A DNA stretch of 49,279 bases, from contig DIZX01000012.1 of the NCBI GenBank assembly GCA_002429485.1, positions 1,440-50,718 on the forward strand, in the 5' to 3' direction. Under the pieces are notes generated by a model. It saw only the letters and a list, made by a program, of their open reading frames with translations, was not told where the DNA came from and ran no database searches. Source of the DNA: Patescibacteria group bacterium UBA6017. GTDB lineage: Bacteria > Patescibacteriota > Saccharimonadia > UBA4664. Position numbers and translations under genes: made by a program. Positions 28,223-46,458 of this stretch are shown here, piece after piece (position 1 is the first letter of the stretch; every line of letters starts with the position of its first letter).

Positions 28223-28298
28223 AGGGGTGTAGCTCAGTTGGTAGAGCATCGGTCTCCAAAACCGAGTGTCGTAGGTTCGAGTCCTGCCACCCCTGCCA
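28223..28298 (+). tRNA. tRNA-Trp (anticodon CCA), CCA encoded
   Basis: Acceptor AGGGGTG/CACCCCT, anticodon stem TCGGT/ACCGA with loop CTCCAAA, T arm GTAGG-TTCGAGT-CCTGC, discriminator G. Confidence 0.92.
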
Positions 28299-28391
28299 GA
28301 TATATTATGGCTTCCTAGAGCCAAAAAAACGTACTACTTTTCGATATTATATTTACGCATCGGAATAATCCCTTCGCAAGGCCCTAAAATT

Positions 28392-28410
28392 GTTTGAGTC
28401 CTGTTACCCC
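28392..28410 (+). repeat. decayed direct copy of the tRNA-Trp T-loop/acceptor 3' segment
   Basis: GTTTGAGTCCTGTTACCCC against tRNA 28275-28293 GTTCGAGTCCTGCCACCCC is 16/19 identical. All three mismatches are C to T. It lies 94 nt after the tRNA. Confidence 0.6.
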
Positions 28411-28694
28411 ATTACCGAATTTTCTACACATTCTCACATGCAACAACATCTTCACTGACATCTTCGGAAAGCATTGCCTTATATATTGTGGTCGTCTACG
28501 ATATAGACACAACATAACAGTCATTCACCGAAGTTACCGGGCAAGTAGGGCGTAATTCCCTCGCTGTCGCGCAACTGTAAAGTCAGAAAACCGGTCGGGA
28601 ATGTTTTATCCATGTACTCTTCGCCGTAAAGAGTGACGGAAGGCTTCAAACCCCTCTGCGCTAGAACGACCGCTAGTACAAAGAGGGGATTTGT

Positions 28695-31067
28695 TTGTCC
28701 AGAGAAACCGAATCTGATTCAAGATTACAGGAACGCGAGGGAACTGCTAACCTCGATACTGATGTTGAGGCCAATTTTGTTGGTGATCCTGATGACCCCG
28801 AGTCTCAGGAGTCGGTAGGAAGCATCCCTGGGGAAGAGTTTGACGTGGACTCCACTGGATCGCTATTGGACTTCGAAAGCCTGCCAACCGAAACAGAACA
28901 GGGCGAGGTTTCGTTCTCGCAACGCTACGTTTTGCGCGATGGAGGGGCCTATCCGATCGATGCCAGCCAAGAAGATGGTACCAACCCCGACGTACCAATG
29001 AGCCAAGGCTTAGAGGGGGTACAGTTAGAGGAGCACCTAGCGGCCCTTGAGGCTGTCAGTGTGGGGGGATCACCTACTACTGAGATTCGGGGCCTCGAGG
29101 GGCACACCGAAACTACCGAGCTATTCATTGTCTCGACCTACGTCAAGGTAGGTGAAACCGCCGAAGGGGAACCAATTATCGAAATTACCGGCTCGTTCGA
29201 ACATCGCGAGATCGAAGTATTAGATAAAGAAGTCGACGAGGCGGAAGACGCTGGTGACGACTATACCGATGAAGACCAAATGCTGAGCGTTGACGGATCT
29301 AGTGACTTCACCGATTACGACGGACATCCTGAGGTTTACGGCGATGACGGCGACGACGAATACGCCGACGAACCGCCAGCCTGGTCGCCCTATGCCGCTC
29401 CTCAGCCTGATCTTGTCAGGATTGAGCCTATGGTAGCTTCCTTGCCAGCCGAGACTCCCATACTATCGGTTCAGGAGAATCAACCCACGGTCGAATCAGT
29501 AGCCCCGTCAAAGCCAACGATAGCTACGAAACCGCAAGTTACTGGCTTAAGTAGCGCCCTGCGGGAACCACAAACTCCAAATCCGCAATTCACTGCTGAG
29601 CGGAGGGATCAAAAAATCGGCGCTGATAATTCCGCTAGCCCCGTGCAAAATCCCGACAATCCAACCGGAGGCGGAAAATTTAACATGGAGCCAACAGTGA
29701 TGATAGCCCCGTTTGCAACTAGGCCGCTATCAAATGAAACAACTACATTTACGCCCGCTGAGCAGCCTCGAGTCTTGCAGGGCGAACCCCACCCACCCTC
29801 GACATCCAACGAGGCGGCTGGCACGATTGATCATCACGAGACTCGGAGTGTGTATTCATCAGTCGCACCGAGCCATGAGAACGTCCCCGGCCAATCATTA
29901 GTTGAGCCGAGCTCCTCCACCTCTACGAACCTCAGGCCAATCGAGTCGACTACTCCCCGACCAGTGAAAGTAGTGCAGACGGAATCACGTTCAGTTATAG
30001 CCAGTTCAGAATCTGATAAATCAGCTCCGAGTCAGCAATTTGAATCTCACCAAAGCTTGCATGATCTTGTGGCTGAAGCAGTCGTCGGCAGTTTGGATCA
30101 AGCCCAGAGCGCACCGCAGATTGACGCTGGCACCGCTGAGCAACCCCTTCAGCTTGAAACTCAAGATGAAGTTTTCGATGAGCCAGCCACCCATCAAGAT
30201 GTTCTAGATACACCTGTTTTGGTCCATACCAGCCTACCTCTTGCGCCACCCTCCGATTTGGTGCAGCAGATATTTAATCGCGAGGTTGGTGGGGTAGAAT
30301 CTGCTCGAACTCTAATAGTTGAACCTATAGTTACCAATGAGGGTATTTTTGCGGTGGAGCACACTCCAAATCAAGCAGCTGTCGAAAGAGTACTCATAAA
30401 GTCAAACGAAGTCGCGCAACTGCGCCCAGTGTCCTTGGAGTCCGCTCATACCAACCCGCCCGTTGCCCCGGAAGCTTCAGTAGCAAAGCCTGTCCGTGAA
30501 GTTCGATCCACTGTGCGCCACGAACAAGCTGTGCCAGTACCCGCTTCGCCTCGAGCCCAATTGGTTGAACCAACCCCAGCATTCACGCACACCGAGCCAT
30601 CGCGCACCGTTGAGCCCTCACGTAGGGTCGCAGCCGAGCCCAGAGTTGAAGCCGTCGAATCACAACCTGCCCTAGTGGCAAAGCCGATATCAAGACACAC
30701 ACCGGAACTCTCTAATACGTTAGCGCCACATGTAATCAATGAACCCAATCACAAGTCTGAGGCCAAGCCAACATCCGAGCCTGACCGAGCAGTTGCTCCC
30801 TCCCCCAATGCTCCAGCTAAGACAATGGAACAACCAGTAACCTCTTGGCTGGAAGACTTCACCGTCCAGCCTACTCATGAGTCTTCTGACGACGGGCGCG
30901 CCGCCATTATTTGGCCCAAACTTTCAACCTCCGAAGCGGTAGCGCCCGCAAGAGCACAGGGTGGGTATAGTCAATTAACTGATGAAGACCTGGAGGTCTC
31001 CTTTGAGGTTGGTCAGCCGACCGGGCGTAAACGCCCGGCGCACAGGACTAGGACGGCAGCTGTATGA
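28695..31067 (+). CDS. 790-aa acidic, Pro/Ser/Thr/Glu/Val-rich low-complexity protein (predicted largely disordered)
   Basis: TTG start 6 nt after AAGAGGGGA. No signal peptide or TM segment. The D/E-rich N-terminal third has runs such as DDGDDEYADE. The long PSTQ-rich remainder shows no recognisable domain. Confidence 0.7.
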   Translation: MSRETESDSRLQEREGTANLDTDVEANFVGDPDDPESQESVGSIPGEEFDVDSTGSLLDFESLPTETEQGEVSFSQRYVLRDGGAYPIDASQEDGTNPDVPMSQGLEGVQLEEHLAALEAVSVGGSPTTEIRGLEGHTETTELFIVSTYVKVGETAEGEPIIEITGSFEHREIEVLDKEVDEAEDAGDDYTDEDQMLSVDGSSDFTDYDGHPEVYGDDGDDEYADEPPAWSPYAAPQPDLVRIEPMVASLPAETPILSVQENQPTVESVAPSKPTIATKPQVTGLSSALREPQTPNPQFTAERRDQKIGADNSASPVQNPDNPTGGGKFNMEPTVMIAPFATRPLSNETTTFTPAEQPRVLQGEPHPPSTSNEAAGTIDHHETRSVYSSVAPSHENVPGQSLVEPSSSTSTNLRPIESTTPRPVKVVQTESRSVIASSESDKSAPSQQFESHQSLHDLVAEAVVGSLDQAQSAPQIDAGTAEQPLQLETQDEVFDEPATHQDVLDTPVLVHTSLPLAPPSDLVQQIFNREVGGVESARTLIVEPIVTNEGIFAVEHTPNQAAVERVLIKSNEVAQLRPVSLESAHTNPPVAPEASVAKPVREVRSTVRHEQAVPVPASPRAQLVEPTPAFTHTEPSRTVEPSRRVAAEPRVEAVESQPALVAKPISRHTPELSNTLAPHVINEPNHKSEAKPTSEPDRAVAPSPNAPAKTMEQPVTSWLEDFTVQPTHESSDDGRAAIIWPKLSTSEAVAPARAQGGYSQLTDEDLEVSFEVGQPTGRKRPAHRTRTAAV

Positions 31068-32803
31068 GCGCACCAATCTCTATCAAATTTCGGGATTTAG
31101 CTTCAAGTGCCCGAGCCGGTAAGCTTTCGGATGTTGTCGAGCGCGATGCCGAGCTCAAACGGCTAGTTCGGATTCTCTTGCGGCCAACCAGCCACCATGG
31201 GGTTATCGTCGCCGAACCTGGCATGGGAAAAACCAGTCTCGTCCAGGCGCTAGCTCTACGCCTGGTTCAGGGCAAAATCCCGCAGCTTGAGCCGAAAATC
31301 TATAGCCTCGACACGGAGCAAATTATGGGCCTGCTTGTCGGCGGGGATAGCCTCAGGAATTGTTTAGATGCCCTGCGCCAAGCCGTCGCCCAACTTCCGG
31401 CCGCCATTATTGTCATCGAGGACATTCAGCTGCTGGCGACCGACGACCCCGGTCGACTCGAGCTCACCCTTGGGCTAATCCAGGCCGTAGCCTCTCACGA
31501 CGGTATTCGCCTCATCACCACCACCACAGCAACCGCCTACCAACGCATATTTCAAGGTGATTACGTTTTTAGCCGAACCTTCGACGCCCTGGAGCTCACC
31601 GAACCCACCACCGATGCAATTATTCACATGGTCGAGCAGGCGGTACCCCGGCTTGAACGTCAAAACCATCAAACAATCTCGGTGGGTGCCGTCGAAAAGG
31701 CCGTATATTATGGCGGACGTTTCGGCCATGGCCGATCTTTGCCCGATGCCGCCATTCGCTTGCTCGAAGGAGCCGTCATCAAGACTGGGTTGGACGGCCG
31801 AGACTCGGTTGAGCCAACTGACATCAAAGATATTGTGTCTGAACGTGAGCGTATGCCACTGGCGGATCTCGAAACCGACCAAAAAGATCGCTTAGCTGAT
31901 CTCGAAGATAAACTCCTACAGGAGGTAGTCGGTCAGGATGCCGCCATTCGTACCATCGCTCGTACCATCGCCAAGGCACAGCTCGGTCTCGGTGACGCCT
32001 CTCGTCCGCGTGGCTCATTTCTCCTACTTGGCCCATCCGGCGTCGGTAAAACTGAAACCGCCAAGGTGCTCGCAAGCCACGTTTTTTCCGGCCCCAATGC
32101 GCTCATCCGCCTTGATATGAGCGAGTACGGCGAAGCCCACAGTGCCGTGAGACTTATCGGCTCTCCCCCAGGCTATATCGGCTACGAGGAGGGGGGTCAA
32201 CTCACCGGAGCGGTCGCCCGCGAGCCGTACTCGCTCGTCCTGCTGGATGAAATCGAAAAGGCCCACACCAAACTCTTTGACCTCTTTCTCCAACTCCTCG
32301 ATGACGGGCGTCTCACCGACTCTGCCGGTAAAACAGTCGACTTTACTCAGACGCTGGTGATGGCTACTTCAAACACGGGCAGCGCCGAAATCGCAGAGGC
32401 GGCTGCCAGAGGCATTAACGTAAACGGTCATGATTTCGTCCAAAATACTCTCATGCCAATTCTCATGCGCAACTTCCGCCCCGAGTTTCTCAATCGTTTC
32501 GACGCTATACTCATTTATCAACCCCTGGGTGAGATTCAGCTAGTCGCCCTCGCTCAACGCGAGCTCGGGCGACTAGCCGGACGTCTCGAGCGGCTCGGTA
32601 TCACCTTCGACATTTCCGATCAGCATATGGCCGATCTCCTCCGCCCTCATTACAATCCACTCTTTGGTGCTCGACCAGTGAAGCGATTGATCGCCAATCA
32701 CTTTGAAACTCCCATTGCTGACATGATTATAAAACGCCAACTCGAAGGGCCGCTCACTATCACCGGCGCAGAGCCCTGGCTAAGACAAGGGGCAACAAGA
32801 TGA
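31064..32803 (+). CDS. compact Clp/Hsp100-family double AAA+ ATPase (no N-domain, no M-domain)
   Basis: First module: VERDAELKRLVRILLR...AEPGMGKTSLV, with VIEDIQ where FIDELH is expected. Second module is canonical: VVGQDAAI, GPSGVGKTETAK, LVLLDEIEKAH, GYIGYEEGG, ATSN, GARPVKRLI. ATGA overlap with the upstream gene. Confidence 0.88.
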   Translation: MSAPISIKFRDLASSARAGKLSDVVERDAELKRLVRILLRPTSHHGVIVAEPGMGKTSLVQALALRLVQGKIPQLEPKIYSLDTEQIMGLLVGGDSLRNCLDALRQAVAQLPAAIIVIEDIQLLATDDPGRLELTLGLIQAVASHDGIRLITTTTATAYQRIFQGDYVFSRTFDALELTEPTTDAIIHMVEQAVPRLERQNHQTISVGAVEKAVYYGGRFGHGRSLPDAAIRLLEGAVIKTGLDGRDSVEPTDIKDIVSERERMPLADLETDQKDRLADLEDKLLQEVVGQDAAIRTIARTIAKAQLGLGDASRPRGSFLLLGPSGVGKTETAKVLASHVFSGPNALIRLDMSEYGEAHSAVRLIGSPPGYIGYEEGGQLTGAVAREPYSLVLLDEIEKAHTKLFDLFLQLLDDGRLTDSAGKTVDFTQTLVMATSNTGSAEIAEAAARGINVNGHDFVQNTLMPILMRNFRPEFLNRFDAILIYQPLGEIQLVALAQRELGRLAGRLERLGITFDISDQHMADLLRPHYNPLFGARPVKRLIANHFETPIADMIIKRQLEGPLTITGAEPWLRQGATR

Positions 32804-33219
32804 ATCATCAACTAGGCGAATTACAGCACCAAGTCGAAATTTCTCGTCCCGAGGAATTGGTTCTTGTGAGCACAGAAGGTGTCACGGTCTCTATAGTTAG
32901 CGAATCTATGGAAACTCAGCCACCGAGAGACGAAATCCCTGAAGGTACTTCCGTAAAAACAGAGGCCTCGCAGCAGGAATTTGAGAGTGATTCTCTCCCA
33001 GTCACACAATCAGATTGGATGGTGCCCGCGGCCCGTCCGGAAATCCTGGATTGGCCGTTCCTGGATATCCAGAGCCAAGCTAATGACGCCGTAGTCGCCG
33101 CGATCGAAGATGAGTCTGTCGGCGAATTAGCCGCGCCTAATGAACAACCGATTCCAAGGCGTGCAACAACCCGACCCGGGTCCTATGAGCTGGCTGCCAG
33201 CGGGCGGATTGCAGCATGA
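32800..33219 (+). CDS. 139-aa acidic hypothetical protein
   Basis: ATGA overlaps at both ends. E/D/S/Q-rich with no recognisable domain. Confidence 0.6.
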   Translation: MNHQLGELQHQVEISRPEELVLVSTEGVTVSIVSESMETQPPRDEIPEGTSVKTEASQQEFESDSLPVTQSDWMVPAARPEILDWPFLDIQSQANDAVVAAIEDESVGELAAPNEQPIPRRATTRPGSYELAASGRIAA

Positions 33220-35390
33220 AGCTCACCGGACAATATACCTTCATTCGCCTCAAACCTTCGCCCGAGACAATAACCGAGGGAGCGCTGGCGAAGCGCCACT
33301 TTGAGGCCACCAAGTCGCTCATGACCGCCTTTGCCGGATTACTCAACTCTAATCGAACGGCCGCAATTAGTCTCGAATTGGCAGCCAAAGAACAGAGCAT
33401 AAACTTCATTATCGGCTCCCCGGAAGAATGGGTCGAAGAAGTCACTCATCACGTTTATGCCGCCTTACCGGGAAGCGAGTTGGAAGTGCTCGACGAATGG
33501 ACTGTTTTTGATACCCTGGGAGATATAGCTGGGGCAAGTGTTCAGTTTAGCCCGCCAGAAGGGGAGCTGCGCTCAGCTGAGTTTGCTGGCAGTGATCCGC
33601 TCCAACCACTGCTAGAGATATTGCATAGCTTGCCCACCGGTAGCCGTCTGTCCCTTCAGCTCCTTCTGACGGGTGCTTTCGCCAAGGGCACACTCGGGGG
33701 AGCTCTCGCAGGTGCATTTCAAGATGCGGTAACTAGCGGCCTGCGCCAGGTCCTTATCGGACCACCGTCGGACCAAACTGCCACCGACAAACCAAGAAAC
33801 AAGCTCGATGATGCCCCCCTGCTCGCCAACCTGCGCTTAATTGCCCTAGCAAAATCAGAGCCCGAAGCTACGGACATCATCCGACGCGCCACGAGCGCCT
33901 ATCACGGGCTCACCCTGCCGGGCAAAACTAAACTGCGCTACCAAACGCCCCGACATCTCGACCCTTGGCTCAAAACAGCTCTTCTTCGTCAGTCCGATCC
34001 AAAAACCTCCTTCCGGCTCACACCAATGGAAGCCACGAACCTATACCATACGCCGCTCAATGTGCGTTCGTTCCCGAAGTTAGTTTCCATGGAGACAACG
34101 CGCCTGCCCATACCTCAAAACCTCTCCACCCAAGGCATCGTCATAGGCACCGGCGCGCATCGTAGTGGGGGGCAGCCAATTCACCTAGCCCCCGAAGACC
34201 GACTTCGCCACACCTACCTCATAGGCCAAACTGGCACCGGTAAATCCACTCTATTTCAGAACGCCATCCTGCAGGATATGGAAAACGGCGACGGCTGTTG
34301 CTTCATCGATCCGCACGGTGAAGTCATCGATTGGCTGCTGCCCCGGATTCCCGCCAACCGCGCTGCCGACGTTGTCCTGTTCGACCCTGGCGACCCTTCT
34401 GCCATCCTTGGCCTCAACCTTCTCGAGTGGCGTACTCCCCACGAGCGCGATCTGATAATTCAGGAGCTGATAGCGCTGTTCTATAAACTTTTCGACCCCG
34501 CCCGCACGGGCATTATTGGACCTCAATTCGAGCATTGGCTTCGCAACGCTGCGCTGACCATTACCGAACCAGCCGTCCGAGGTACGATTGTTGATATTCC
34601 GCGTCTCTTCACGGATAAAGCCTTTGCGAAGGCTGCCGTTGAACGATCTTCGCACGTCGCCGTCAAAGATTTTTGGAATAATCAAATGGCTGCCACCGCC
34701 GATTTCCACAAGTCCGAGATGCTCAACTATTTCACCTCCAAGTTCGGAAGCTTCCTCGGCAATTCCGTGATGTATCAAATTCTTTCGCAGCGCTCTAGCG
34801 CCTTCGACCTGCGTACCATCATGGACCGCCGCAAAATCCTGCTCGTCAACCTCTCGAAGGGCCGACTTGGCAGCCTCAATGCCCAACTACTGGGTACCCT
34901 CATCGTGACCAAAATTCAGATGGCCGCCATGAGCCGGGCCGACGTCCCGGCCGAAAACCGGCCACCATTCTATGTCTATATCGACGAGTTTCAGAATGTC
35001 GTTACCGATTCGTTCGCCGCTATGCTCTCAGAAGTCCGCAAGTATGGCGTCGGGCTGCACCTGGCGCATCAATACGTCGATCAACTCCCCGACAATATCA
35101 AGCAAGCCGTATTTGGCAATATTGGTACCATCATGGCTTACCGCCTTGGTTCTACTGACGCCAAGTGGCTCAGTGGCCATTTTGCCCCCCTCAGCATCGA
35201 TGACCTCACCAATATCCCGCCCTACCATTACCATATGAGAACCCTTGCCGACGGCCAACTTACCACTCCCTTTACGGTGAAAGCTCCGTATATTGAAACA
35301 ACCCCCCGCCCAGATGTTGAGCAAGCCATCCGCAGCCGTGTTAGAGACTTCGTGGAAAGCACTCATGCCGTTACGAATGCCCCAAAATGA
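33216..35390 (+). CDS. FtsK/HerA-superfamily P-loop ATPase (HerA/DUF87- or TraD/VirD4-like), soluble, with ~330-aa unknown N-terminal domain
   Basis: Walker A LIGQTGTGKST, then CCFIDPHGE, Walker B FYVYIDEFQNV, and VRKYGVGLHLAHQYVDQL...GNIGTIMAYRL, which is typical of the HerA/TraG-D_C type. No TM helices seen. Confidence 0.8.
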   Translation: MKLTGQYTFIRLKPSPETITEGALAKRHFEATKSLMTAFAGLLNSNRTAAISLELAAKEQSINFIIGSPEEWVEEVTHHVYAALPGSELEVLDEWTVFDTLGDIAGASVQFSPPEGELRSAEFAGSDPLQPLLEILHSLPTGSRLSLQLLLTGAFAKGTLGGALAGAFQDAVTSGLRQVLIGPPSDQTATDKPRNKLDDAPLLANLRLIALAKSEPEATDIIRRATSAYHGLTLPGKTKLRYQTPRHLDPWLKTALLRQSDPKTSFRLTPMEATNLYHTPLNVRSFPKLVSMETTRLPIPQNLSTQGIVIGTGAHRSGGQPIHLAPEDRLRHTYLIGQTGTGKSTLFQNAILQDMENGDGCCFIDPHGEVIDWLLPRIPANRAADVVLFDPGDPSAILGLNLLEWRTPHERDLIIQELIALFYKLFDPARTGIIGPQFEHWLRNAALTITEPAVRGTIVDIPRLFTDKAFAKAAVERSSHVAVKDFWNNQMAATADFHKSEMLNYFTSKFGSFLGNSVMYQILSQRSSAFDLRTIMDRRKILLVNLSKGRLGSLNAQLLGTLIVTKIQMAAMSRADVPAENRPPFYVYIDEFQNVVTDSFAAMLSEVRKYGVGLHLAHQYVDQLPDNIKQAVFGNIGTIMAYRLGSTDAKWLSGHFAPLSIDDLTNIPPYHYHMRTLADGQLTTPFTVKAPYIETTPRPDVEQAIRSRVRDFVESTHAVTNAPK

Positions 35391-35441
35391 GCGAGGGCAC
35401 TTTCTTGCAACCATAAGCAAGTTTGCAGTAAACTGTTCCCC

Positions 35442-36467: not shown

Positions 36468-36585
36468 ATTATACTGTCGTGAAAATAGCTTAGTGCCGGT
36501 GTAGCCCCGCACGACTTTATGCCAAGCAATATTGCGTTCATATCCGTCAAGCTTTAAAATAAACACAAGAATAATACGGCTATAC

Positions 36586-37293: not shown

Positions 37294-37297
37294 GTCT

Positions 37298-38194
37298 ATG
37301 AGTGAGGCTTCGTTAATATTACGGTTTGAAGCAATCGGAACCACCTGGCAAATTGATTGTTACGATCTTCCTGCGTCTCTCAGACCTGAGATACTTGAGG
37401 CAGATATTATGAAGCGGATTTCAGAGTATGGCATGACGTACTCGCGCTTTCGGGATGATTCATTAGTCGCTCAAATGTCGCGCGAAGCGGGACGATATAC
37501 GCTACCGTCGGATAGCAAGCTGATATTCAACTTTTATGAGCAGCTTTACCGGGTCACGGACGGCAAAGTTACGCCGCTCATCGGCCAAGTTCTGGTAGAT
37601 TCCGGGTATGATGCGGCCTATTCGCTCGTACCCCAAGAGATTATCCAGGCCGCCCCGTTATGGGAGGACAGCTTCGAATATGCCGACTCAACCCTAACTC
37701 TGAAACAACCCACTTTGCTAGACATTGGTGCCGCCGGAAAAGGCTACCTCGTTGATATAATCGGCGAAATGTTAACCGAAGTAGCCATTGCTAGCTACTG
37801 CATCGATGCCGGTGGTGACATTTTGGTGCGCGGCATGAGCGCGGCACCATTCCGAATCGGTCTTGAGCACCCGCATGACGATAGCCAAGTTATTGGCGTA
37901 ATACCTCTCGGTGACGGCAGTATCTGTGCCTCAGCCAGCAATCGGCGTGCTTGGGGCGATCTTCATCACATTATAGACCCTCACACAGCCGAGCCGGTAC
38001 GTTCCATTATCGCCACTTGGGTGGTCGCTTCATCCGCTATGATTGCCGATGGCCTAGCTACGGCCTTATTCTTCACCCCCGCTGCAAAACTTAAGCAGGT
38101 TTTCGATTTTGAATATATCCTAGTTAAACAAGATATGACTTTTGAATTTTCTTCGGGGCTGAATGCTGAGATATTTACGGGAGCTACGCCATGA
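37298..38194 (+). CDS. apbE: FAD:protein FMN transferase (ApbE family)
   Basis: I moved the start to ATG 37298. ...FRDDSLV...LLDIGAAGKGYLVD...CIDAGGDIL...ASASNRRAW...HIIDPHT..P. Confidence 0.85.
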   Translation: MSEASLILRFEAIGTTWQIDCYDLPASLRPEILEADIMKRISEYGMTYSRFRDDSLVAQMSREAGRYTLPSDSKLIFNFYEQLYRVTDGKVTPLIGQVLVDSGYDAAYSLVPQEIIQAAPLWEDSFEYADSTLTLKQPTLLDIGAAGKGYLVDIIGEMLTEVAIASYCIDAGGDILVRGMSAAPFRIGLEHPHDDSQVIGVIPLGDGSICASASNRRAWGDLHHIIDPHTAEPVRSIIATWVVASSAMIADGLATALFFTPAAKLKQVFDFEYILVKQDMTFEFSSGLNAEIFTGATP

Positions 38195-39702: not shown

Positions 39703-39887
39703 TCAATCAATTCAAATCAGATGATGGGGTGCCTACGCCCGTAAGAACCGACTACTCTACTGACCGAGATTTCATCTAGCCTAGACATAGTGATCCGGAA
39801 GTCCGACTACTACCCTGGCCAATGCCATTTTGACAGACGCTCGCACTTAAGCGTAAGCTCTATCTAAATAACTAAGGGTACCCCTCT

Positions 39888-40541
39888 ATGCGCAAAATAT
39901 CATACAAACTAACTATCGCAGCCAGCATGACCCTGTTTGCTCTCAGCGGTGCCTCCGTCCTGGCGGTGAGCCCTAACGCCAATGCCCATGCCACCAACGT
40001 CGGCAATCCAACCTCCCCGGCGGTCGAAGCCACCGGCAGGCCGGCGCCCACCGATAACCCAACCGATGTGAGATCGAAAGGTTCCACTCATCTAGCCGAT
40101 GCCAAGCTCAAAGCCTGCCAGAAGCGCGAAACAGCCATCAACAACATCATGGCACGCACTATTGACCGCTCCAACAAGCAAATCAAGGTCTTTGATACCA
40201 TTGCCACTCGCACCGAGGCATTTTACACCAGCAAAGGCAAGACCCTGTCCGGATACGCCGCGCTCGTATCGGCCGTCAGTACCGCCAAGGCCAAGGCCAC
40301 TACGGACCTCGCCGCTATGAAAACCACCGCCGACCTCAAATGTGATGGTACCGACCCCAAGGGCGCCGCCAGCGCCTTCAAGGCCAACCTGAAGCTCGAA
40401 ATTGCCGACCTCAAAGCCTACAAGACCGCCGTTAAGAACCTTATCGTTGGAGTGAAATCGGTCCAGGGCACGGACAGCTCATCCCCTAAGGCGAGCACCT
40501 CACCCACGGCCAGCCCCACTACTAACCAGGGAGGTAACTAG
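39888..40541 (+). CDS. secreted helical protein with Ser/Thr/Pro tail
   Basis: Signal peptide MRKISYKLTIAASMTLFALSGASVLA, a helical Ala/Lys-rich body, and an STP-rich C-terminus. Confidence 0.65.
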   Translation: MRKISYKLTIAASMTLFALSGASVLAVSPNANAHATNVGNPTSPAVEATGRPAPTDNPTDVRSKGSTHLADAKLKACQKRETAINNIMARTIDRSNKQIKVFDTIATRTEAFYTSKGKTLSGYAALVSAVSTAKAKATTDLAAMKTTADLKCDGTDPKGAASAFKANLKLEIADLKAYKTAVKNLIVGVKSVQGTDSSSPKASTSPTASPTTNQGGN

Positions 40542-40543
40542 TA

Positions 40544-40816
40544 ATGAAGAAGCAATCCGGTTTCGCAGTACTTGAAATCCTCCTGTTGGTTGTCGTCGTA
40601 GCCATCCTTGGCTATACCGCCGTCACCTTCATCGGGCACCAACAGGCAGCCACGGACACCACCGGCTCAACCGCCGCCACAGTTACCGTTCCGGCTGCCC
40701 CACAGATCAACTCAACCGCTGATTTAACTGCCGCCGAAAGCGCAGTGGACCAAGTCAACGTTGATGCGGGCACCGCGGACAGCTCACAGCTTGATTCCGA
40801 GCTAGCCAACTTCTAA
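40544..40816 (+). CDS. prepilin-type N-terminal cleavage/methylation-domain protein (pilin/pseudopilin-like)
   Basis: MKKQSG|FAVLEILLLVVVVAILGY is a class III signal: G, then F, with E at +5 and a hydrophobic helix. Confidence 0.75.
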   Translation: MKKQSGFAVLEILLLVVVVAILGYTAVTFIGHQQAATDTTGSTAATVTVPAAPQINSTADLTAAESAVDQVNVDAGTADSSQLDSELANF

Positions 40817-40840
40817 CAAAAAATAGAGGACCAAATATAA

Positions 40841-40865
40841 AGAGGGTTAGCTGCCCTCTCTTTTT
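40841..40865. terminator. intrinsic terminator (probably bidirectional) between the pilin gene and the convergent HKD gene
   Basis: AGAGGG-ttagctg-CCCTCT followed by cTTTTT. The upstream side is A/T-rich. Confidence 0.7.
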
Positions 40866-40886
40866 GCGCTGCTATAAACTAGCCGT

Positions 40887-41366
40887 CTACATAAATTTAC
40901 TGATCTTAATAAACTTCAGCATTTCAGTTGCTAAATTAGCTGATTTAACCCTTCTCATAACCTCGCAGCTCGAGCTCTGGGACAAGATGTTGAGGCTTCC
41001 CTCGTATAGAATAGAGCCATCAATGATCGCTAGCTTCCTGTGATGGTTATCGGTAAATAGAACTTGGACGCCAAGCCCCTGCAGTAAACCAATTGCGGTA
41101 GCGGCCTCCGCCGCCATCCGCCGGTCGTGCTCCTTCGGATCACGCGTATTGATTACTATATGAACCCCTCTTTTCGTAAGCCTACGAAATGAGGGGTAAA
41201 GCGCATTCATGCGCTTATGGGTTATAAAAGGGCTTTCGATAATTAACTCACGTTTACACTTAACTAAGTCATTCAAGAATGCTGGGTAAAATGACTGTTC
41301 GTCATATAATCTAGATGTAAGCAGAGGCGTCGGGGTAGAGCGCTTGAAGGGCCGATGGAAGATCAT
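40887..41366 (-). CDS. short single-HKD phospholipase-D-family nuclease (Nuc-like)
   Basis: 159 aa with a perfect HxK(x4)D(x6)GSxN motif: HRKLAIIDGSILYEGSLN. GAGGAG lies 8 nt upstream. ATGA overlap with the upstream small ORF. Confidence 0.85.
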   Translation of the reverse strand: MIFHRPFKRSTPTPLLTSRLYDEQSFYPAFLNDLVKCKRELIIESPFITHKRMNALYPSFRRLTKRGVHIVINTRDPKEHDRRMAAEAATAIGLLQGLGVQVLFTDNHHRKLAIIDGSILYEGSLNILSQSSSCEVMRRVKSANLATEMLKFIKISKFM

Positions 41367-41545
41367 GAGTTTGGCTCCTCATCCTCAAACAGCGCCCGAA
41401 TTTCATCTGGATCACACTCAACGTCATCGTCAAAAGTTTGATTCCCGGACTGCCACCCCTGCCATATGAAACCAAACCCCAAAATGCCCCTCAAAATAGG
41501 GTATTTTGGGGTTTGGTTTTGACCTATGGGTGGCAGGACAATCAA
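41363..41545 (-). CDS. small WQGWQSGNQTFDD-motif ORF, copy 1 (start uncertain)
   Basis: ...GFGFIWQGWQSGNQTFDDDVECDPDEIRALFEDEEPNS*. Its stop overlaps the HKD ATG. The N-terminal part as drawn runs through a 17-bp hairpin. In-frame TTG codons nearer the motif are alternative starts. Confidence 0.45.
   Translation of the reverse strand: MIVLPPIGQNQTPKYPILRGILGFGFIWQGWQSGNQTFDDDVECDPDEIRALFEDEEPNS
41424..41465 (+). repeat. 42-bp core, copy 1
   Basis: TCATCGTCAAAAGTTTGATTCCCGGACTGCCACCCCTGCCAT is identical over 42 nt to 46364-46405. Its last part, CTGCCACCCCTGCCA, equals the tRNA-Trp 3' end. Confidence 0.95.
41469..41519. other. 17-bp perfect hairpin between head-to-head cores
   Basis: AAACCAAACCCCAAAAT (41469-41485), a 17-nt loop, ATTTTGGGGTTTGGTTT (41503-41519). 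A-rich 5' arm and T-rich 3' arm, so it is terminator-like in both directions. Confidence 0.8.
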
Positions 41546-41552
41546 ACTTTTT
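41526..41552 (-). repeat. truncated inverted copy of the core
   Basis: The reverse complement AAAAAGTTTGATTGTCCTGCCACCCAT matches the copy-2 type core AAAAGTTTGATT(ctc)GTCCTGCCACCC with a 3-nt deletion. On the plus strand it encodes ...YGWQDNQTF... Confidence 0.75.
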
Positions 41553-41728
41553 CATTCATCGGCCTCCACAATTTTGAAGTCATCTACCCCCCTGGGGCCA
41601 TGTTTGTTATGCTAAACCTGTTGCCTAACTGGCGTTGGGTACTAAATTCACGCGCTAGTGAGCCTAGCCGATACAGGCCACCACGCAGACTACTAGGAGA
41701 ATTCGATATCAGACATACTCTCAAAAAT

Positions 41729-43534
41729 ATGCTTTCAACATCTATTGCAGTGGCTAGGTCTCTGGTGCAGACTGCTTTACCAGAAAATGGGTCTGAATAT
41801 AAGACATTTTCCATAAAGGAAGTTACTGCGCAAGTGGCGACTCTCCTGATAGTACTGGTCGGCTTCATAACCTTCTCTTCTGGTCTTTCTAACTATTTCG
41901 TTGGTGACGACCAGGGTCAGATCACTACAAACACGCCAGTTCATAGTATTGCCAATATTGGAATGTTCTTTAATGGAGGCACCTTCTACACGGGTCAAGC
42001 GCTGCACCCGCTTGTTGGAGCCTATTATCGCCCGCTCATGACTACGGTTTACTCACTCGTGTACACGTTATTTGGCCCTCAACCGGGGGCATTCCACTTA
42101 GTTCAACTATGCCTACAAATTGCTTGTTCTATAATGCTTTTTCTAGTCTTCAAATACTTTTTTAGACCAAATTTGGCTTTTATCCTCTCGCTTATATTTC
42201 TAGTCCACCCTATAAACAGCCAGGCTGTATTTGCAATCGCTTCCATGCAGGAGCCGTTATTCTTCTTATTCGGAGTAACAGCCCTATGGTCCGCAATTAG
42301 GTTCCGGGGTAAATCCTTATGGTATTTGCTACTAACAGTTTTGCTATTAATCTTGTCGATGCTATCGAAAGAAACGGGTGTTCTATTTTTAGTGATTACC
42401 TTGATATACGTATACCATGCAGACCGAAAGCGCTTCTACCCACTACTGGGGTTATCGGCGCTCCCCACTATCATGTATATAACGCTAAAAATACACGCCG
42501 TAGGAGTCGCAGTTAACCCGCATACCGCTCCGATCGATAACCTTAGTCTGTTGGAGCGAATGATAAATGTCCCATCCATGGTTCTCTTCTACTTTACGAA
42601 GTTTATTTATCCCTTGCCACTCGCTCATAATTACTACTGGGTTTACAAAACAATTACATTCCAGCATGTTATTTTGCCACTCATAGTCGACCTCGTAATT
42701 GCTGCCGGAATCACCTATTTGGCGGTCGTATTGCGAAAAAAGTCACCGAGGCAGCACTTCCCGTTATTCATGTTCTTCGCTATCTGGTTACTTCTAGGCG
42801 TGCTTTTGCATATGCAGATTATCCCTCTCGATGTGACCGTCAGCGAGACTTGGTTCTACTTTTCTATGGCTGGGCTTTTGGGGCTGATCGGCGTGCTACT
42901 GAATGCGTTCATGCCTCGTGTTTCAAAGGGGTGGCCAATCGCAGTCGTTGTCATTGTCATTTGTCTTCTCGGATTTCGGACATGGGAGCGCGGCTTTGAT
43001 TGGAAAGATGTATATTCCCTTGCTTACCGGGATATTGCAGTCTCAAAAGATGATTACGTATCGCTATCAAATATCGCATATGGCTTGGATTCACAAGGTG
43101 AATACTCTCAAGCCAAGCCTTATGTGTTACGCGCTGTTAACATTTATCCATCTTTCAATAACTACAACACGCTCGGAATTACGCTAGCTGGGCTACATGA
43201 CTACCCCGGAGCTAGAGATGCATATTTAAAAGCACTGGGCTATAACTATTATGAGAATATTTTATGCAACTTGGGCCAGATTTTGACGGTATATGGTGAT
43301 TATGATGCGAATAAACGGATACTTGCCGTCGGGCTTCGGACGTACCCAAGGAATAGCTTGTTGTGGTCAGATCTAGCGATCCTAGAATATTCCAACGGCT
43401 ATACCTCCAATGCCAACCTTGCCGTAGCAAAGGCGGTGCAGTACGGTAACCCATACCCGGAAATATACAAAAAAATACTAGGTAATCAGCCTCTTGATCT
43501 AAATATCGACCCTAAGCCTAGTAGGGGATTTTGA
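41729..43534 (+). CDS. GT-C-fold glycosyltransferase (PMT/ArnT/TMTC-like) with C-terminal TPR repeats
   Basis: Polytopic N-terminal domain with an early-loop DD motif (NYFVGDDQGQITTN) and a C-terminal TPR region (YSQAKPYVLRAVNIYP...). The start is uncertain: ATG 41729 or 41600. The track ORF is open from 41438 through the inverted core. Confidence 0.7.
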   Translation: MLSTSIAVARSLVQTALPENGSEYKTFSIKEVTAQVATLLIVLVGFITFSSGLSNYFVGDDQGQITTNTPVHSIANIGMFFNGGTFYTGQALHPLVGAYYRPLMTTVYSLVYTLFGPQPGAFHLVQLCLQIACSIMLFLVFKYFFRPNLAFILSLIFLVHPINSQAVFAIASMQEPLFFLFGVTALWSAIRFRGKSLWYLLLTVLLLILSMLSKETGVLFLVITLIYVYHADRKRFYPLLGLSALPTIMYITLKIHAVGVAVNPHTAPIDNLSLLERMINVPSMVLFYFTKFIYPLPLAHNYYWVYKTITFQHVILPLIVDLVIAAGITYLAVVLRKKSPRQHFPLFMFFAIWLLLGVLLHMQIIPLDVTVSETWFYFSMAGLLGLIGVLLNAFMPRVSKGWPIAVVVIVICLLGFRTWERGFDWKDVYSLAYRDIAVSKDDYVSLSNIAYGLDSQGEYSQAKPYVLRAVNIYPSFNNYNTLGITLAGLHDYPGARDAYLKALGYNYYENILCNLGQILTVYGDYDANKRILAVGLRTYPRNSLLWSDLAILEYSNGYTSNANLAVAKAVQYGNPYPEIYKKILGNQPLDLNIDPKPSRGF

Positions 43535-43635
43535 ATTGAGAATGAATAGCTGGGTTATGCGGGTGAGTAGCTCTTGGTCGTTCATTCGGATACATAGCCT
43601 TGATTAAACGTGCAGGCATCAGAAACCGCATAGTT

Positions 43636-44115
43636 CTATAGAAAATCACTTATCCGAAGAAAGGCTACCATCTCACTCGCAAGTTGTGCTGATTCTAATC
43701 TTCTCATAACCTCGTAGCTTGAGCTCTGGGACAAGATGTTGAGACTACCCTCATATAGAATTTAGCCATCAATAATCGCTAGCTTTCTATGATGGTTACC
43801 CGTGAATAGCACTACGGCTCCAAGCTCTTGAATTAAACCAATTGCGGTAGCGGCTTCAGCCGCCATCCGCCAATCGTGCTCCTTCGGATCTCGTGTATTG
43901 ATTACTATACGAACCCCTCTTTTGGTAAGCCTACGAAATGAGGGGTAAAGCGCATTCATGCGCTTATGGGTTATAAAAGGGCTCTCAATAATTAATTCTC
44001 GCTTACACTTTGCTAAGTCATTCATGAACGCTGGGTAAAATGACCGTTCGTCATATAATTTAGATGTGAGTAGGGGAGTCGGGTCAGGTCGTTTGAAGAG
44101 CTTCTTGAAGATCAT
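43636..44115 (-). pseudogene. HKD/PLD-family nuclease paralog with in-frame TAA inside the HKD motif
   Basis: Same 480-nt length as 40887-41366 and closely similar throughout. Codon 118 (43762-43764) is TAA where copy 1 has TCT (Ser). The frame continues ILYEGSLNILSQSSSYEVMRRLESAQLASEM... to a TAG at 43636. Confidence 0.8.
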
Positions 44116-44261
44116 AAGTTCTGATCCTCATCTTCAAACAGCGCCCGGATTTCGTTTGGATCACACTTAATCTCATCGTCAAAAGTTTGATTCTCGTCCT
44201 GCCACCCCTGCCAGCACTTATTTGAGGCTCTGTAGAGCCTTTTTTGATATACTGATAACAT
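44112..44261 (-). CDS. small WQGWQ-motif ORF, copy 2
   Basis: MLSVYQKRLYRASNKCWQGWQDENQTFDDEIKCDPNEIRALFEDEDQNL*. GGAG lies 9 nt before ATG 44261; ATG 44276 is an alternative. Its stop overlaps the ATG of the HKD pseudogene. Confidence 0.5.
   Translation of the reverse strand: MLSVYQKRLYRASNKCWQGWQDENQTFDDEIKCDPNEIRALFEDEDQNL
44173..44214 (+). repeat. core, copy 2 (closest to tRNA-Trp)
   Basis: TCATCGTCAAAAGTTTGATTCTCGTCCTGCCACCCCTGCCAG. Positions 44191-44214 are 22/24 identical to tRNA-Trp 28276-28299, with a 19-nt exact run at 44196-44214. Confidence 0.95.
44225..44245 (+). terminator. plus-strand intrinsic-terminator-like hairpin 10 nt after core 2
   Basis: AGGCTC-tgta-GAGCCT followed by TTTTT. 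Confidence 0.5.
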
Positions 44262-44315
44262 AGATTCTTTCTCCATGAGTAGATTTCCTATACGTAACTG
44301 GGTAAACTTAGAGCA

Positions 44316-44723
44316 ATGAACAAACCAATCTCTGAGCTTGTCGGTACACAAATCGCCGATATTATATGCGACGAACCATCTAAAAATTGGCTCTTTAAAT
44401 TTGATTCAGGGAGCGAATTTAGAATCGAATCGCTTTGGCGAATTTCAAACGACAAAGAAGTGTTACTTACTGACACAGATCATGAACAGAAATTTGGTCT
44501 TCCAGCACCCGTCAATGCGATGGTCGAGGCCAAACAATTGCTCGGTGGCAAAATCACGAAAGCTTTACTAACGCCCGTTGGTGACGTACACCTAACGTTC
44601 AGTAACGGGAACTGTCTTGAGATCCTCATTTGGTCGGCAGGCTATGAGTCATGGACATTGAATGCTGGCAAAATATTGATAGTTGCTCAAGGTGGTGGGA
44701 CTATAACTCAATTTGGCGAATAG
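44316..44723 (+). CDS. hypothetical protein (135 aa)
   Basis: Clean ORF with a beta-rich looking sequence. No family recognised. It is convergent with small ORF copy 3. Confidence 0.55.
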   Translation: MNKPISELVGTQIADIICDEPSKNWLFKFDSGSEFRIESLWRISNDKEVLLTDTDHEQKFGLPAPVNAMVEAKQLLGGKITKALLTPVGDVHLTFSNGNCLEILIWSAGYESWTLNAGKILIVAQGGGTITQFGE

Positions 44724-44754
44724 GGTCGTTTTAGGTAAGAGCGTATATAACAAA

Positions 44755-44901
44755 CTAATCTCTCTCCTCATCTAGAACTAATTTAATTTCCTCAACGTCA
44801 AAATCAAACTCATCGTCAAATGTTTGATTCCCGGACTGCAGCCCCTGCCAGCACTTATTTAAGGCTCTACGGAGCTTTTTTCGTATCTTAGTATTAGTCA
44901 A
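44755..44901 (-). CDS. small WQGWQ-motif ORF, copy 3 (degenerate, no downstream partner)
   Basis: Manual translation from TTG 44901: (M)TNTKIRKKLRRALNKCWQGLQSGNQTFDDEFDFDVEEIKLVLDEERD*. W to L change in the motif, no RBS and no cargo gene, so it may be a relic. Confidence 0.3.
   Translation of the reverse strand: MTNTKIRKKLRRALNKCWQGLQSGNQTFDDEFDFDVEEIKLVLDEERD
44810..44851 (+). repeat. core, copy 3 (3 mismatches)
   Basis: TCATCGTCAAATGTTTGATTCCCGGACTGCAGCCCCTGCCAG. It shares about 30 further nt of right flank (GCACTTATTT.AGGCTCT..GAGC.TTTTT) with copy 2. Confidence 0.9.
44862..44881 (+). terminator. weak plus-strand terminator-like hairpin after core 3
   Basis: GCTC-tacg-GAGC plus TTTTTT. 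It is homologous to the hairpin after core 2. Confidence 0.35.
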
Positions 44902-44910
44902 CTTGATACG

Positions 44911-45504
44911 TTGTCAAAATTAGAGCGTGTCTTGCCAAATGAGGCATATCCTGGTAATATAGGTCAATTCGTTCAAAGAATGCGTTTATCGGTGCGCCTC
45001 ACCGATCGGACCCAAGGAGTGGCTATGCAGATCAGCGTAGATACACAAGGTATTGAAGACTTCCTCGCGAAGAACGGGGACACCAACCGCGACGATTATG
45101 ACTACCGGACGCCAATGACGGTCGTCACGCCGGCGCATGTCTTCGCTCGCAAGCTCGTACAGGCTGCTACTACCGCCATCACCCAGCTCGGAGCGCTGAG
45201 CGTCTATATCGAGTCAGTTGAGCTCTTCTTCGCGCCGGAGCACCTCCGGAAATCGTTCAGCCCACGTTTCAAGCTCACCGTCACGATCCCTCGCACGACC
45301 CAGACTCTGACGGTCTTCGGTCCCAGCACCTCGAAGTGCTATGCCCTGCCCTATGCCTCGGATCCCTTCCCGGGTCTCGATTTCATCCAGGTGATGGTCG
45401 GGGACGTCCGCCGGGAGCTTCATCGCGAAATCGAGATGCTTCGCGCCAACCTCGACCTGCTCGATGAGCCGCTTGCCTCTCCCAAGCAAGACATCGCCGT
45501 CTAG
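44911..45504 (+). CDS. hypothetical protein (197 aa), visibly more GC-rich than its surroundings
   Basis: TTG start. No recognisable domain. A GC-rich hairpin (CCCCGAC-tcctt-GTCGGGG) follows downstream. Confidence 0.5.
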   Translation: MSKLERVLPNEAYPGNIGQFVQRMRLSVRLTDRTQGVAMQISVDTQGIEDFLAKNGDTNRDDYDYRTPMTVVTPAHVFARKLVQAATTAITQLGALSVYIESVELFFAPEHLRKSFSPRFKLTVTIPRTTQTLTVFGPSTSKCYALPYASDPFPGLDFIQVMVGDVRRELHREIEMLRANLDLLDEPLASPKQDIAV

Positions 45505-45655
45505 TAACCACAGCGGCGCCGCCCAACTCACCCAACCCCGCCCCTGACGAGAGTCCCCGACTCCTTGTCGGGGGCGATCGTCTTCCCTGGGGTAGGACAT
45601 ATACGACAATCATCTCTTAGGTTCGATACGCTCTACCAAACAAAACCAAACTCAG

Positions 45656-46288
45656 TTATTCAACCGCATCAATAATCTCAAAGTCATTATCGTTGAATAT
45701 AACGGCCTGAGAGTCTTTTAGCTTAATCAGCTTGTCTTGATCGGCCCGCGCTTCTACAGCCACCATTACTTCGTTAAATTCCGCGTTGTCGACGTGCGGT
45801 ATGATCGTGTAGGGCGCGAGTTTCAGTCCCTCTTCGATCACCTCCTCGGCAAATTCGGGCTCGTCCGCCGCTTCTAAGTTAATCCCGCCAAGCGATGCTC
45901 CCGCCACCAATGCGCCGGCGCTATCACCGCCGTACACAATACCGTTTTTCAACAACTCCTGGATAATGGATTCGAACCCGCTTCTACGCATTTCGTATCT
46001 GAGCATGAAGGTATTACCGCCCCCCGCCCAAATAAGGTCGTATCGTGAGAGAGTTTGTTTGAGGGAGGCAGAGTCATCGAACTCTCTCAGATCTACTACC
46101 GTAACCTTCATGCCAAGTGACTCAAAGAGGGCAACGCGTTTGTCGATGATAAAATTTCGCGCGCGATCGGAGTAGTAGTCTTTGGCATTCGGAACAAGCG
46201 CAACGGAAACATCTGCCAAAGGCTTGCCGATGAGTTCGGCAAGGTCATCGGGAGTTGGGATGTCAATCGATGATAGATATAGTTTCAT
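45656..46288 (-). CDS. peptidase S51 family (dipeptidase E-like)
   Basis: I moved the start to ATG 46288 (MKLYLSS...). ...DLIWAGGGNTFMLRYEMR...GIVYGGDSAGALVAG (nucleophile Ser in G-D-S-A-G) and a later ...IIPHVDN His. Confidence 0.8.
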   Translation of the reverse strand: MKLYLSSIDIPTPDDLAELIGKPLADVSVALVPNAKDYYSDRARNFIIDKRVALFESLGMKVTVVDLREFDDSASLKQTLSRYDLIWAGGGNTFMLRYEMRRSGFESIIQELLKNGIVYGGDSAGALVAGASLGGINLEAADEPEFAEEVIEEGLKLAPYTIIPHVDNAEFNEVMVAVEARADQDKLIKLKDSQAVIFNDNDFEIIDAVE

Positions 46289-46290
46289 AA

Positions 46291-46458
46291 TTACCACTTT
46301 ACCCTGTAATCGTCACGATGTTCTAGTACTTCCCTAACATCTTCCACTTCAAAATCCCAATTATCATCGTCAAAAGTTTGATTCCCGGACTGCCACCCCT
46401 GCCATGAAATCATCCGTTTGTCAAGTCGCGTCTTCGGGCGCGATTTTGTTGTGTTCAC
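46291..46458 (-). CDS. small WQGWQ-motif ORF, copy 4
   Basis: Manual translation from GTG 46458 (AAGGAG 5 nt upstream): (M)NTTKSRPKTRLDKRMISWQGWQSGNQTFDDDNWDFEVEDVREVLEHRDDYRVKW*. The stop is 2 nt before the S51 peptidase ATG. It is below the ORF-track cutoff. Confidence 0.5.
   Translation of the reverse strand: MNTTKSRPKTRLDKRMISWQGWQSGNQTFDDDNWDFEVEDVREVLEHRDDYRVKW
46364..46405 (+). repeat. 42-bp core, copy 4
   Basis: Identical to 41424-41465 over exactly 42 nt, with unrelated sequence on both sides. Confidence 0.95.
46426..46450 (+). terminator. plus-strand intrinsic-terminator-like hairpin 21 nt after core 4
   Basis: TCGCGTC-ttcg-GGCGCGA (7 bp including one G-U pair, TTCG tetraloop) followed by TTTTgTT. 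Confidence 0.5.

Follow-up and report, generated by a model that had tools for sequence, protein, structure and literature searches.

In a 49,279-nt stretch of the genome of Patescibacteria group bacterium UBA6017 (Saccharimonadia; contig DIZX01000012.1), referred to here as the window, the 3′ end of a tRNA-Trp gene recurs in direct orientation over the 18 kb that follow the gene. We read these repeats as att-like junctions in an array of small cassettes that lack an integrase and that accreted at the tRNA-Trp 3′ end, and give this reading a probability of roughly 0.6. The evidence for it includes two comparisons: in related genomes the repeated sequence changes with the tRNA gene next door, and the sequence behind the repeats is also found behind genuine tRNA genes.

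The tRNA-Trp 3′ end forms the edge of a conserved block

The 15-mer CTGCCACCCCTGCCA corresponds to the 15 nt at the 3′ end of tRNA-Trp, whose CCA is encoded in the gene. It occurs exactly at 28284, within the gene, and again at 41450, 44199 and 46390, with a further match carrying 2 mismatches at 44836; all lie on the + strand. The chance expectation for matches to this 15-mer is 0.10, and none of 100 shuffles gave five or more. The original prediction, made from the DNA letters of the window, had listed two exact 15-mers, a 22/24 match and a 13/15 variant at 41.4–46.4 kb together with a decayed copy nearer the gene, and every one of them was recovered. In the copy that it placed at 44191–44214, with 22/24 identity, the 19-nt run consists of 18 nt that match exactly from the CCA end (at 44213) plus the G that follows CCA. 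The decayed copy, 94 nt past the tRNA, also stood up: a match of its quality is rarely expected by chance (Table 1), its three mismatches are all C to T, the spacing of the tRNA is kept, and it continues antisense as block-like ...TCAAACAATTTTAGG.

The 15-nt match is real, and the length of the repeat had been underestimated. The distal repeats extend over ~41 nt (minus strand TGGCAGGGGTGGCAGTCCGGGAATCAAACTTTTGACGATGA), a unit that we call the block; its tRNA-derived part is termed the core. Conservation starts sharply at TGG, the complement of CCA, and this outer edge falls on the same nucleotide, the CCA end, in ~25 aligned copies. Copies 1 and 4 have blocks that are identical at 41/41 positions, set in unrelated sequence on either side and continuing into different open reading frame (ORF) tails. 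The inverted partial block in Table 1, counted as a sixth copy, faces copy 1 head-to-head with a long symmetric hairpin between the two, and supplies the N-terminal residues GWQDNQTF of a predicted PMT_2/TPR glycosyltransferase.

Two other accounts of the block were tried and rejected. TTGACG was considered as a −35 promoter element, and no −10 element follows it; a full tRNA-like fold on the + strand lacks a 5′ acceptor strand upstream. When the non-tRNA half of the block was used as a DNA pattern against genome contigs it gave one match, judged to be chance, and the block pattern found no match in viral contigs.

The core follows the neighbouring tRNA

Related contigs carry block arrays just downstream of tRNA-Trp (one locus) or tRNA-Gln (four loci), and the blocks in all five are oriented like the tRNA 3′ end. 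L-numbers label the contigs and loci that were compared, L002–L004 being other assemblies of the window's organism. L085 (L085–L087) has two Trp-type blocks within 1.6 kb downstream of tRNA-Trp, oriented relative to the tRNA as they are in the window. Three blocks lie beside tRNA-Gln(ctg) in L088 (L088/89), two beside a tRNA-Gln-like 3′ end cut by the contig end in L093 (L093–95), and two and three beside tRNA-Gln(ttg) in L098 and L099, respectively, all in direct orientation. A protein from the window's array is encoded identically on DHWZ01000002.1 (GCA_002413465.1) and on ENA contigs, and the nearest relatives of a neighbouring gene come from metagenome-assembled genomes of Saccharimonadales.

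In three of the five loci a core equals the local tRNA over at least 15 nt, and the window's own cores match its tRNA-Trp exactly over 15–18 nt. All three cores of L099 equal the end of the local tRNA-Gln(ttg) for 15–17 nt, and the core of L093a agrees at 15/15 positions with its own lineage-specific variant of tRNA-Gln, as against 12/15 with tRNA-Trp. Between the Trp-type block of L100 and the Gln-type block L099a there are 3 differences over 41 nt, two of them at the positions that distinguish the two tRNA ends. Complementarity to the tRNA reaches 18 nt in window copy 2, L083 and L100. The same dichotomy is visible in translation: W is followed by L or Q in 137 of the 141 family members that were parsed, and the commonest N-terminal pentapeptides, WLGRQ (23) and WQGWQ (22), are literal translations of the antisense ends of tRNA-Gln(UUG) and tRNA-Trp. 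A core independent of the tRNA would have counted against the original prediction, and the opposite was observed: the core tracks the tRNA, with Trp-type cores beside tRNA-Trp and Gln-type cores beside tRNA-Gln, and the best-supported reading is that the same cassette unit serves both genes.

The motif ATAAT(T)(G/T)CA stands directly before TGG in many blocks, where it encodes a conserved I-I-[SA] before W, and it is also found beside real tRNA-Gln genes, for example at L093 11725–11735 and L099 14382–14390. Since it is common to blocks and tRNA-Gln genes, the conserved junction runs ~9 nt past the tRNA end in many copies.

Cassette-type flanks lie behind real tRNA genes

As had been predicted, the four distal copies point in the direction of the tRNA and each has a terminator-like hairpin and T-run behind it on the + strand. 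The hairpin after copy 1 is symmetric, because it is also flanked by an A-run; the hairpin behind the real tRNA-Trp is followed by an A-run, not a T-run. The 42-nt flank of copy 4 is identical at 40/42 positions to the flank of the real tRNA-Trp gene in L085, despite only 58% amino-acid identity between the RluD homologues of the two organisms, and at 38/44 positions to the sequence behind a Gln-type block of L096. Block b of L085 has the flank of copies 2 and 3 behind it, and the window's tRNA-Trp has the same type of hairpin. Finally, the hairpin GCTCTGTAGAGCC stands behind both window copy 2 and the tRNA-Gln of L093. Judged by these alignments, real tRNA genes at the heads of arrays carry cassette-type downstream flanks, as would be expected if an incoming cassette brings a new tRNA 3′ end and a terminator with it.

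Cassettes are also mosaic. The small-ORF tail and PLD gene of window copy 1 are 80–96% identical over ~400 nt to those of a cassette in L098, which belongs to a tRNA-Gln array; the cores of this pair (Trp versus Gln) agree at only 18/27 positions, and the upstream flanks are unrelated. L083, with a Trp core, and L090, with a Gln core, are homologous in the sequences that flank the core on either side. On a larger scale, the window and L085 share a common order up to tRNA-Trp (RNA polymerase alpha, ribosomal protein genes, tRNA-Thr/Tyr/Thr and PspC) and are wholly different beyond it. The HAD hydrolases of L085 and L088 were considered as one shared cassette and rejected as such, being only 23% identical. 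Use of the ClpB-like neighbour as a synteny probe gave no block-wise comparison, as its nearest relatives were either too divergent or represented by contigs of insufficient length.

The block is constrained as DNA and its ORF tail as protein

One frame of the block encodes WQGWQSGNQTFDD and runs on into a short acidic tail, whose conservation is seen in the protein and not in the DNA, so that a small minus-strand ORF begins with each block. A family pattern of N-terminal W[LQ]G.., NQTF-D/E and an acidic helix with (V/I)(D/E)EIRxLLDE fits all four window ORFs, behind which lie, in order, a PLD-type nuclease, a truncated PLD paralogue, no partner and an S51 peptidase. Copies 2 and 3 lack a start codon near W in the main frame. 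ORF 1 has possible in-frame TTG starts at 41482, 41494 and 41545, and ORF 4, called from an upstream in-frame GTG at 46458, is the 55-aa database protein P0001. A protein search with the copy 4 sequence alone found only itself; a first profile search gathered 18 clusters of the family, and when a profile was run exhaustively against 1.84 billion representative proteins, the number rose to 497 clusters at E ≤ 1e-3.

Entropy by codon position, taken over 23 copies, divides the ORF in two. In codons 0–10, which make up the block, third-position entropy (H3) is 0–1.0, and in codons 3–7 it lies below that of the first position (H1). In codons 11–28, the tail, H3 is free at 1.2–1.95, with low H1 and H2 wherever D, E, I or L is conserved. 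The conserved third positions of the block imply a constraint at the nucleotide level, so that selection there is not on the protein alone, and the free third and conserved first and second positions of the tail imply ordinary protein-coding selection. The ORF is under dual constraint. The original prediction had suggested att-like scars of serial integration. Decaying scars they are not: each is a conserved functional module made of block, small-ORF start and hairpin.

These data bear on whether the resemblance to tRNA could be accidental, a conserved N-terminal motif (WQGWQ...) of a small-protein family that happens to look like a tRNA end and was multiplied by local gene duplication. The block does lie within a real protein family of ~500 clusters whose tail is under protein-level selection, and L081 and L082 keep W-x-G despite diverged nucleotides. 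We nevertheless give such an accident almost no credence. It would account neither for the conserved third codon positions of the block nor for the flank homology with real tRNA genes; the core alternates between just two forms, those of the two tRNA ends, and agrees with the adjacent tRNA down to a lineage-specific variant; and a chance 18-nt match ending at CCA is estimated at ~1e-3 per 1-Mb genome. The co-variation and flank data already contradict it, and together the comparisons support the view that the repeats are copies of the tRNA 3′ end.

A +1-frame mini-ORF of 11–12 codons, M(L)AGVAxRESNF followed by a stop, begins with ATG or GTG in all four window copies (41464, 44213, 44850 and 46404, minus strand). 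Many other copies have it with an ATG or TTG start. We rejected it (M-A-G-V-A-x-R-E-S-N-F-stop) as an overlapping gene: an NTG start is present in only ~16/22 copies, and the stop arises automatically from the F-D codons.

In window copy 1, L079, L081–83, L091 and L100, the small ORF runs into the start of the nuclease gene through an ATGA or GTGCTAA overlap. Because of this frequent translational coupling to a PLD nuclease, we guess that the small acidic protein may be an inhibitor or antitoxin-like partner. It gave no match to known toxin or antitoxin families, and the PLD protein matches generic nuclease PLD domains only. Among blocks found without a PLD query a PLD gene follows only ~1/4; other blocks are followed by an S51 peptidase, a radical SAM protein or nothing. 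In L088 (13057–14619, +) a Gln-type block is in frame with a 534-aa ORF without a family match, from which it follows that the block can head long proteins besides the small acidic ORF.

Proposed formation of the array

In the reading that we favour, a cassette, followed in the direction of the tRNA, opens with a terminator-type hairpin and one or two cargo genes; the small acidic ORF comes next, encoded on the other strand, and the ~41-nt block closes the unit. The outer 15–19 nt of the block copy the acceptor/CCA end of the tRNA, and the block doubles as the first ~13 codons of the small ORF. With its outer end so constituted, a cassette recombining into the tRNA would rebuild a complete tRNA with a terminator, and each new insertion would push older cassettes downstream. 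The anatomy of the repeats, the co-variation of the core with the tRNA, the common flanks, the mosaic cassettes and the dual constraint are direct findings. We infer that the joints arose by site-specific recombination, that the recombinase is encoded elsewhere in the genome, and that the cassettes are still mobile.

Several observations weigh against this reading. Pfam, NCBIfam and PADLOC were scanned with every sizeable ORF in 27.5–47.4 kb and with the unknown ORFs of related arrays. No tyrosine or serine recombinase, of which the original prediction had recognised none in the block, and no resolvase, transposase or relaxase was found in the 18-kb block, including its 135-aa (DUF6188) and 197-aa ORFs, and precomputed Pfam tables and scans revealed none around the other arrays. 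No integrase lies beside any array head, where the neighbours are PspC, L33, MetK or a transporter. Cassette order is the same, with no presence/absence difference, among the few near-identical contigs that could be compared (L002–L004, L085–87, L088/89 and L093–95), and no excision product was found. Many Gln-type blocks (consensus TGGCTGGGGAGATGG) match the local tRNA-Gln over only 9–10 nt, and the blocks of L079, L081–83, L090 and L091 have no tRNA within the 5–10 kb of readable flank. Blocks stand at gene 5′ ends and can be fused to long ORFs (PMT_2, and the 534-aa ORF of L088), which would also fit a role in expression.

The first segment of the window array raises a further difficulty. 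Although formally bounded by direct repeats, this 13-kb segment has genome-like GC content and carries glutamyl-tRNA-reductase-like, ApbE, ClpB-like and TraD-like genes. With such composition and housekeeping-type genes it may not be an inserted element and may be resident DNA. The predicted stack of accreted segments therefore survives in part: the three small segments (0.6–2.7 kb) look like cassettes, the 13-kb segment is doubtful, and serial integration is still what we infer.

The lack of a recombinase in or near any array also fits an alternative without a dedicated enzyme, in which homologous recombination and gene conversion, anchored by the short homology of the blocks, would exchange or duplicate cassettes. 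DNA acquired by natural transformation would be a possible route, with the tRNA gene as conversion donor for the core; orphan toxin/immunity modules that are shuffled via a conserved motif-coding stretch offer a parallel. The 41/41 identity of copies 1 and 4 with diverged tails is typical of concerted evolution, the homology of L083 and L090 on both sides of different cores resembles a conversion patch, and the unit of PLD gene, small ORF and block is locally duplicated in copies 1 and 2. We consider this alternative unlikely. A length of 15–41 nt is short for RecA-type exchange, conversion tracts should end variably whereas the edge is fixed at the CCA end, and flank modules are exchanged precisely at that edge.

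A second alternative places the function of the block in RNA. The 5′ end of the small-ORF mRNA would pair with the last 15–19 nt of tRNA-Trp or tRNA-Gln, or with a 3′ fragment of either, and so control translation or stability, much like a retroviral primer-binding site or the target of a 3′ tRNA fragment. Complementarity is perfect from the TGG opposite CCA, for up to 18 nt, and co-varies with the tRNA; the block coincides with the region where translation starts, is in sense orientation to its gene in every case, and is constrained at the nucleotide level. Pairing, however, leaves unexplained why arrays lie directly downstream of the cognate tRNA in direct orientation and why the same flank modules occur behind real tRNA genes. 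The acceptor and T stems would have to be unwound, and in many Gln-type blocks the complement is limited to 9–10 nt. No reverse transcriptase domain was found in the window block or the related loci, where the 15–18-nt tRNA complement is present. As an explanation of the arrays RNA pairing is decidedly improbable.

A stronger form of the accretion reading would endow Saccharibacteria with a dedicated integron-like cassette system, in which the site mimics the 3′ end of tRNA-Trp or tRNA-Gln within the first codons of a small acidic gene and is served by an unlinked, possibly non-canonical recombinase. The block might, besides serving as a junction, also pair with the tRNA as RNA. Ultra-small, reduced genomes would then gain genes by a route that has not been described before. 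We put this forward tentatively and think it rather unlikely; to name the frequently coupled PLD-family phosphotransferase as candidate recombinase would be speculation.

Segments, cargo and surroundings

The features of the array are collected in Table 1. GC content is 0.42–0.46 over 41001–45000, which holds the PMT_2, truncated PLD and DUF6188 cassettes (segments B and C), versus ~0.50–0.56 on either side.

Table 1. Features of the tRNA-Trp array, with positions in the window
Feature	Position	Strand	Basis or remark
tRNA-Trp(cca), CCA encoded; array head, attL-like side	28223..28298	+	ARAGORN; Rfam tRNA, 71.4 bits
Hairpin GGCTTCCTAGAGCC right behind tRNA-Trp, "type X"	28309..28322	+	Sequence; flank comparison
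Decayed direct copy of the tRNA-Trp T-loop-to-acceptor segment, 16/19	28392..28410	+	Chance expectation 0.02 at ≤3 mismatches
PLD-like nuclease of 159 aa with one HKD motif; its translation is coupled to that of small ORF 1	40887..41366	-	Pfam PLDc_2 2.5e-10; PADLOC MkoC/MkoB/DrmC PLD domains
Small acidic ORF 1 (WQGWQSGNQTFDDDVECDPDEIRALFEDEEPNS, then stop); stop overlaps PLD start (ATGA)	41363..41464	-	Translation; family membership
Block copy 1; first 15 nt are the complement of the tRNA-Trp 3′ end	41424..41464	-	Alignment of copies
Long hairpin and T-run after copy 1	41489..41511	+	Sequence
Segment B cargo: PMT_2/TPR membrane glycosyltransferase-like protein, local GC 0.43–0.46	41513..43534	+	Family scan
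Sixth copy: inverted partial block GGGTGGCAGGACAATCAAACTTTTT, encoding ...GWQDNQTF...	41528..41551	+	nhmmer E=0.19; translation
Truncated paralogue (117 aa) of the PLD nuclease	43762..44115	-	Sequence comparison
Small acidic ORF 2; in-frame ATG at 44261 gives database protein P0002	44112..44213	-	
Block copy 2; 18-nt exact run from the CCA end (19 with next G)	44173..44213	-	Alignment of copies
Type X hairpin and T-run after copy 2	44224..44241	+	Sequence; flank homology
Segment C cargo: DUF6188 protein, 135 aa	44316..44723	+	Family scan
Small acidic ORF 3 (WQGLQSGNQTFDDEFDFDVEEIKLVLDEERD, then stop); in-frame TTG at 44901, no coupled downstream gene	44755..44850	-	
Block copy 3; core 13/15	44810..44850	-	Alignment of copies
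Type X hairpin and T-run after copy 3	44861..44878	+	~30/33 identical to flank of L085 block b
Promoter-like site	44917..44890	-	Near copy 3 flank
Segment D cargo: 197-aa protein, no family match	44911..45504	+	Family scans
Peptidase S51 (PepE-like); starts 2 nt after small ORF 4 stop	45656..46288	-	Family scan
Small acidic ORF 4 (MISWQGWQSGNQTFDDDNWDFEVEDVREVLEHRDDYRVKW, then stop)	46291..46413	-	Translation; database match
Block copy 4; 41/41 identical to copy 1	46364..46404	-	Alignment of copies
"Type Y" flank with terminator hairpin after copy 4	46405..46446 (hairpin 46423–46446)	+	Flank comparison

From ORF sizes and synteny with L085, the first 27 kb of the window appear to be a ribosomal-protein region. 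The gene order before tRNA-Trp is tRNA-Thr, tRNA-Tyr, tRNA-Thr, a PspC-like ORF and a 195-aa ORF. Within the first segment, an AdoCbl-II (B12) riboswitch aptamer at 28525–28601 (+) scores 53.9 bits (gathering score 36.5) and lies ~90 nt upstream of a 790-aa ORF rich in Pro, Ser and Glu, without a family match. Behind this ORF follow a gene for a ClpB-like double-AAA (AAA+) protein (31064–32803, +) and one for a TraD/TrwB-like coupling-protein homologue with weak matches (33216–35390, +), an odd set for B12 control. The 724-aa gene is split into several ORFs in the NCBI version L003, probably by assembly frameshifts. At 40544–40816 (+) a 90-aa protein has a faint pilin/IcmG-like match.

Among the related loci, two blocks in L079 (6599–7600, +) lie 960 nt apart around ORFs that by eye are RelE/HigB-type toxin-like and HTH antitoxin-like, and the second of them is followed by its small ORF and then by a PLD gene with a frameshift. 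Cargo resembling toxin-antitoxin genes is also found near L090 (ParE/RHH) and L088 (Fic).

Relation to known systems

Saccharibacteria have genomes of ~1 Mb, and how they acquire accessory genes is poorly understood; few mobile elements that can be recognised as such are known from them, and our literature search found no description of such a cassette system in this group. If the accretion reading is right, the arrays would show where variable genes of Saccharibacteria reside and how they may be exchanged; among the cargo seen so far are nucleases, toxin-antitoxin pairs, glycosyltransferases and peptidases. Either the ~41-nt block or the peptide W[LQ]G...NQTF...EIRxLL could serve as a simple tag for finding such hotspots in metagenomes. 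A translated recombination-type site that switches its target tRNA by two nucleotide changes would be an unusual case of overlapping constraints, and the missing recombinase makes for a concrete, testable question.

Cis-mobilizable elements (CIMEs) lack an integrase by definition. Tandem islands at tRNA and tmRNA genes are known from the ssrA locus of Dehalococcoides, where they lie between partial tmRNA repeats with a 15-bp element-side motif by the repeat (PMC3146451), and from the tycheposon islands of Prochlorococcus, which accrete in tandem at tRNA genes (10.1101/2020.12.28.424599). The arrays described here resemble these islands and CIMEs in having an intact tRNA gene at one end, direct 3′-end repeats between segments, a conserved element-side motif and segments without an integrase, and newer insertions would likewise push older ones outward. 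Segments bounded by direct repeats of the 3′ part of an adjacent intact tRNA are replicated in L085, L088, L093, L098 and L099. Unlike tandem islands, no examined array (7 tRNA-linked ones and other block-bearing contigs) has an integrase, the units measure ~0.6–3 kb with one or two genes rather than many kilobases, and the repeat is embedded in a conserved ORF start where two nucleotide changes switch the tRNA target.

Integrons offer a second comparison. Common to both are cassettes of ~1 kb with one or two genes and unrelated cargo, a recurring site that includes a hairpin, and the absence of a recombinase from the cassettes. In contrast to integrons there is no adjacent intI, the head of the array is a tRNA gene, and cargo lies on both strands. 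The site joins a tRNA-end copy and a coding start to a short hairpin of 5–10 bp and is not an attC palindrome, as judged with no attC model run.

The small ORF has parallels of its own. Where it overlaps a nuclease gene start it resembles type II toxin-antitoxin or nuclease-inhibitor pairs, from which it differs in having no match to a known toxin or antitoxin family and a PLD partner in only ~1/4 of the blocks found without a PLD query. In SSV-type archaeal integrases the recombination site matches part of a tRNA gene. Their attP lies inside the integrase's own ORF (PMC7253208). The block would similarly be a recombination site inside the coding sequence of an element, with the differences that the ORF is an acidic peptide of ~35–60 aa, the site is at its 5′ end and the hosts are bacteria, the Saccharibacteria. 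Taken together, the best-supported reading is that these arrays are a variant of tandem accretion at tRNA sites, related to CIMEs and to integron-like arrays.

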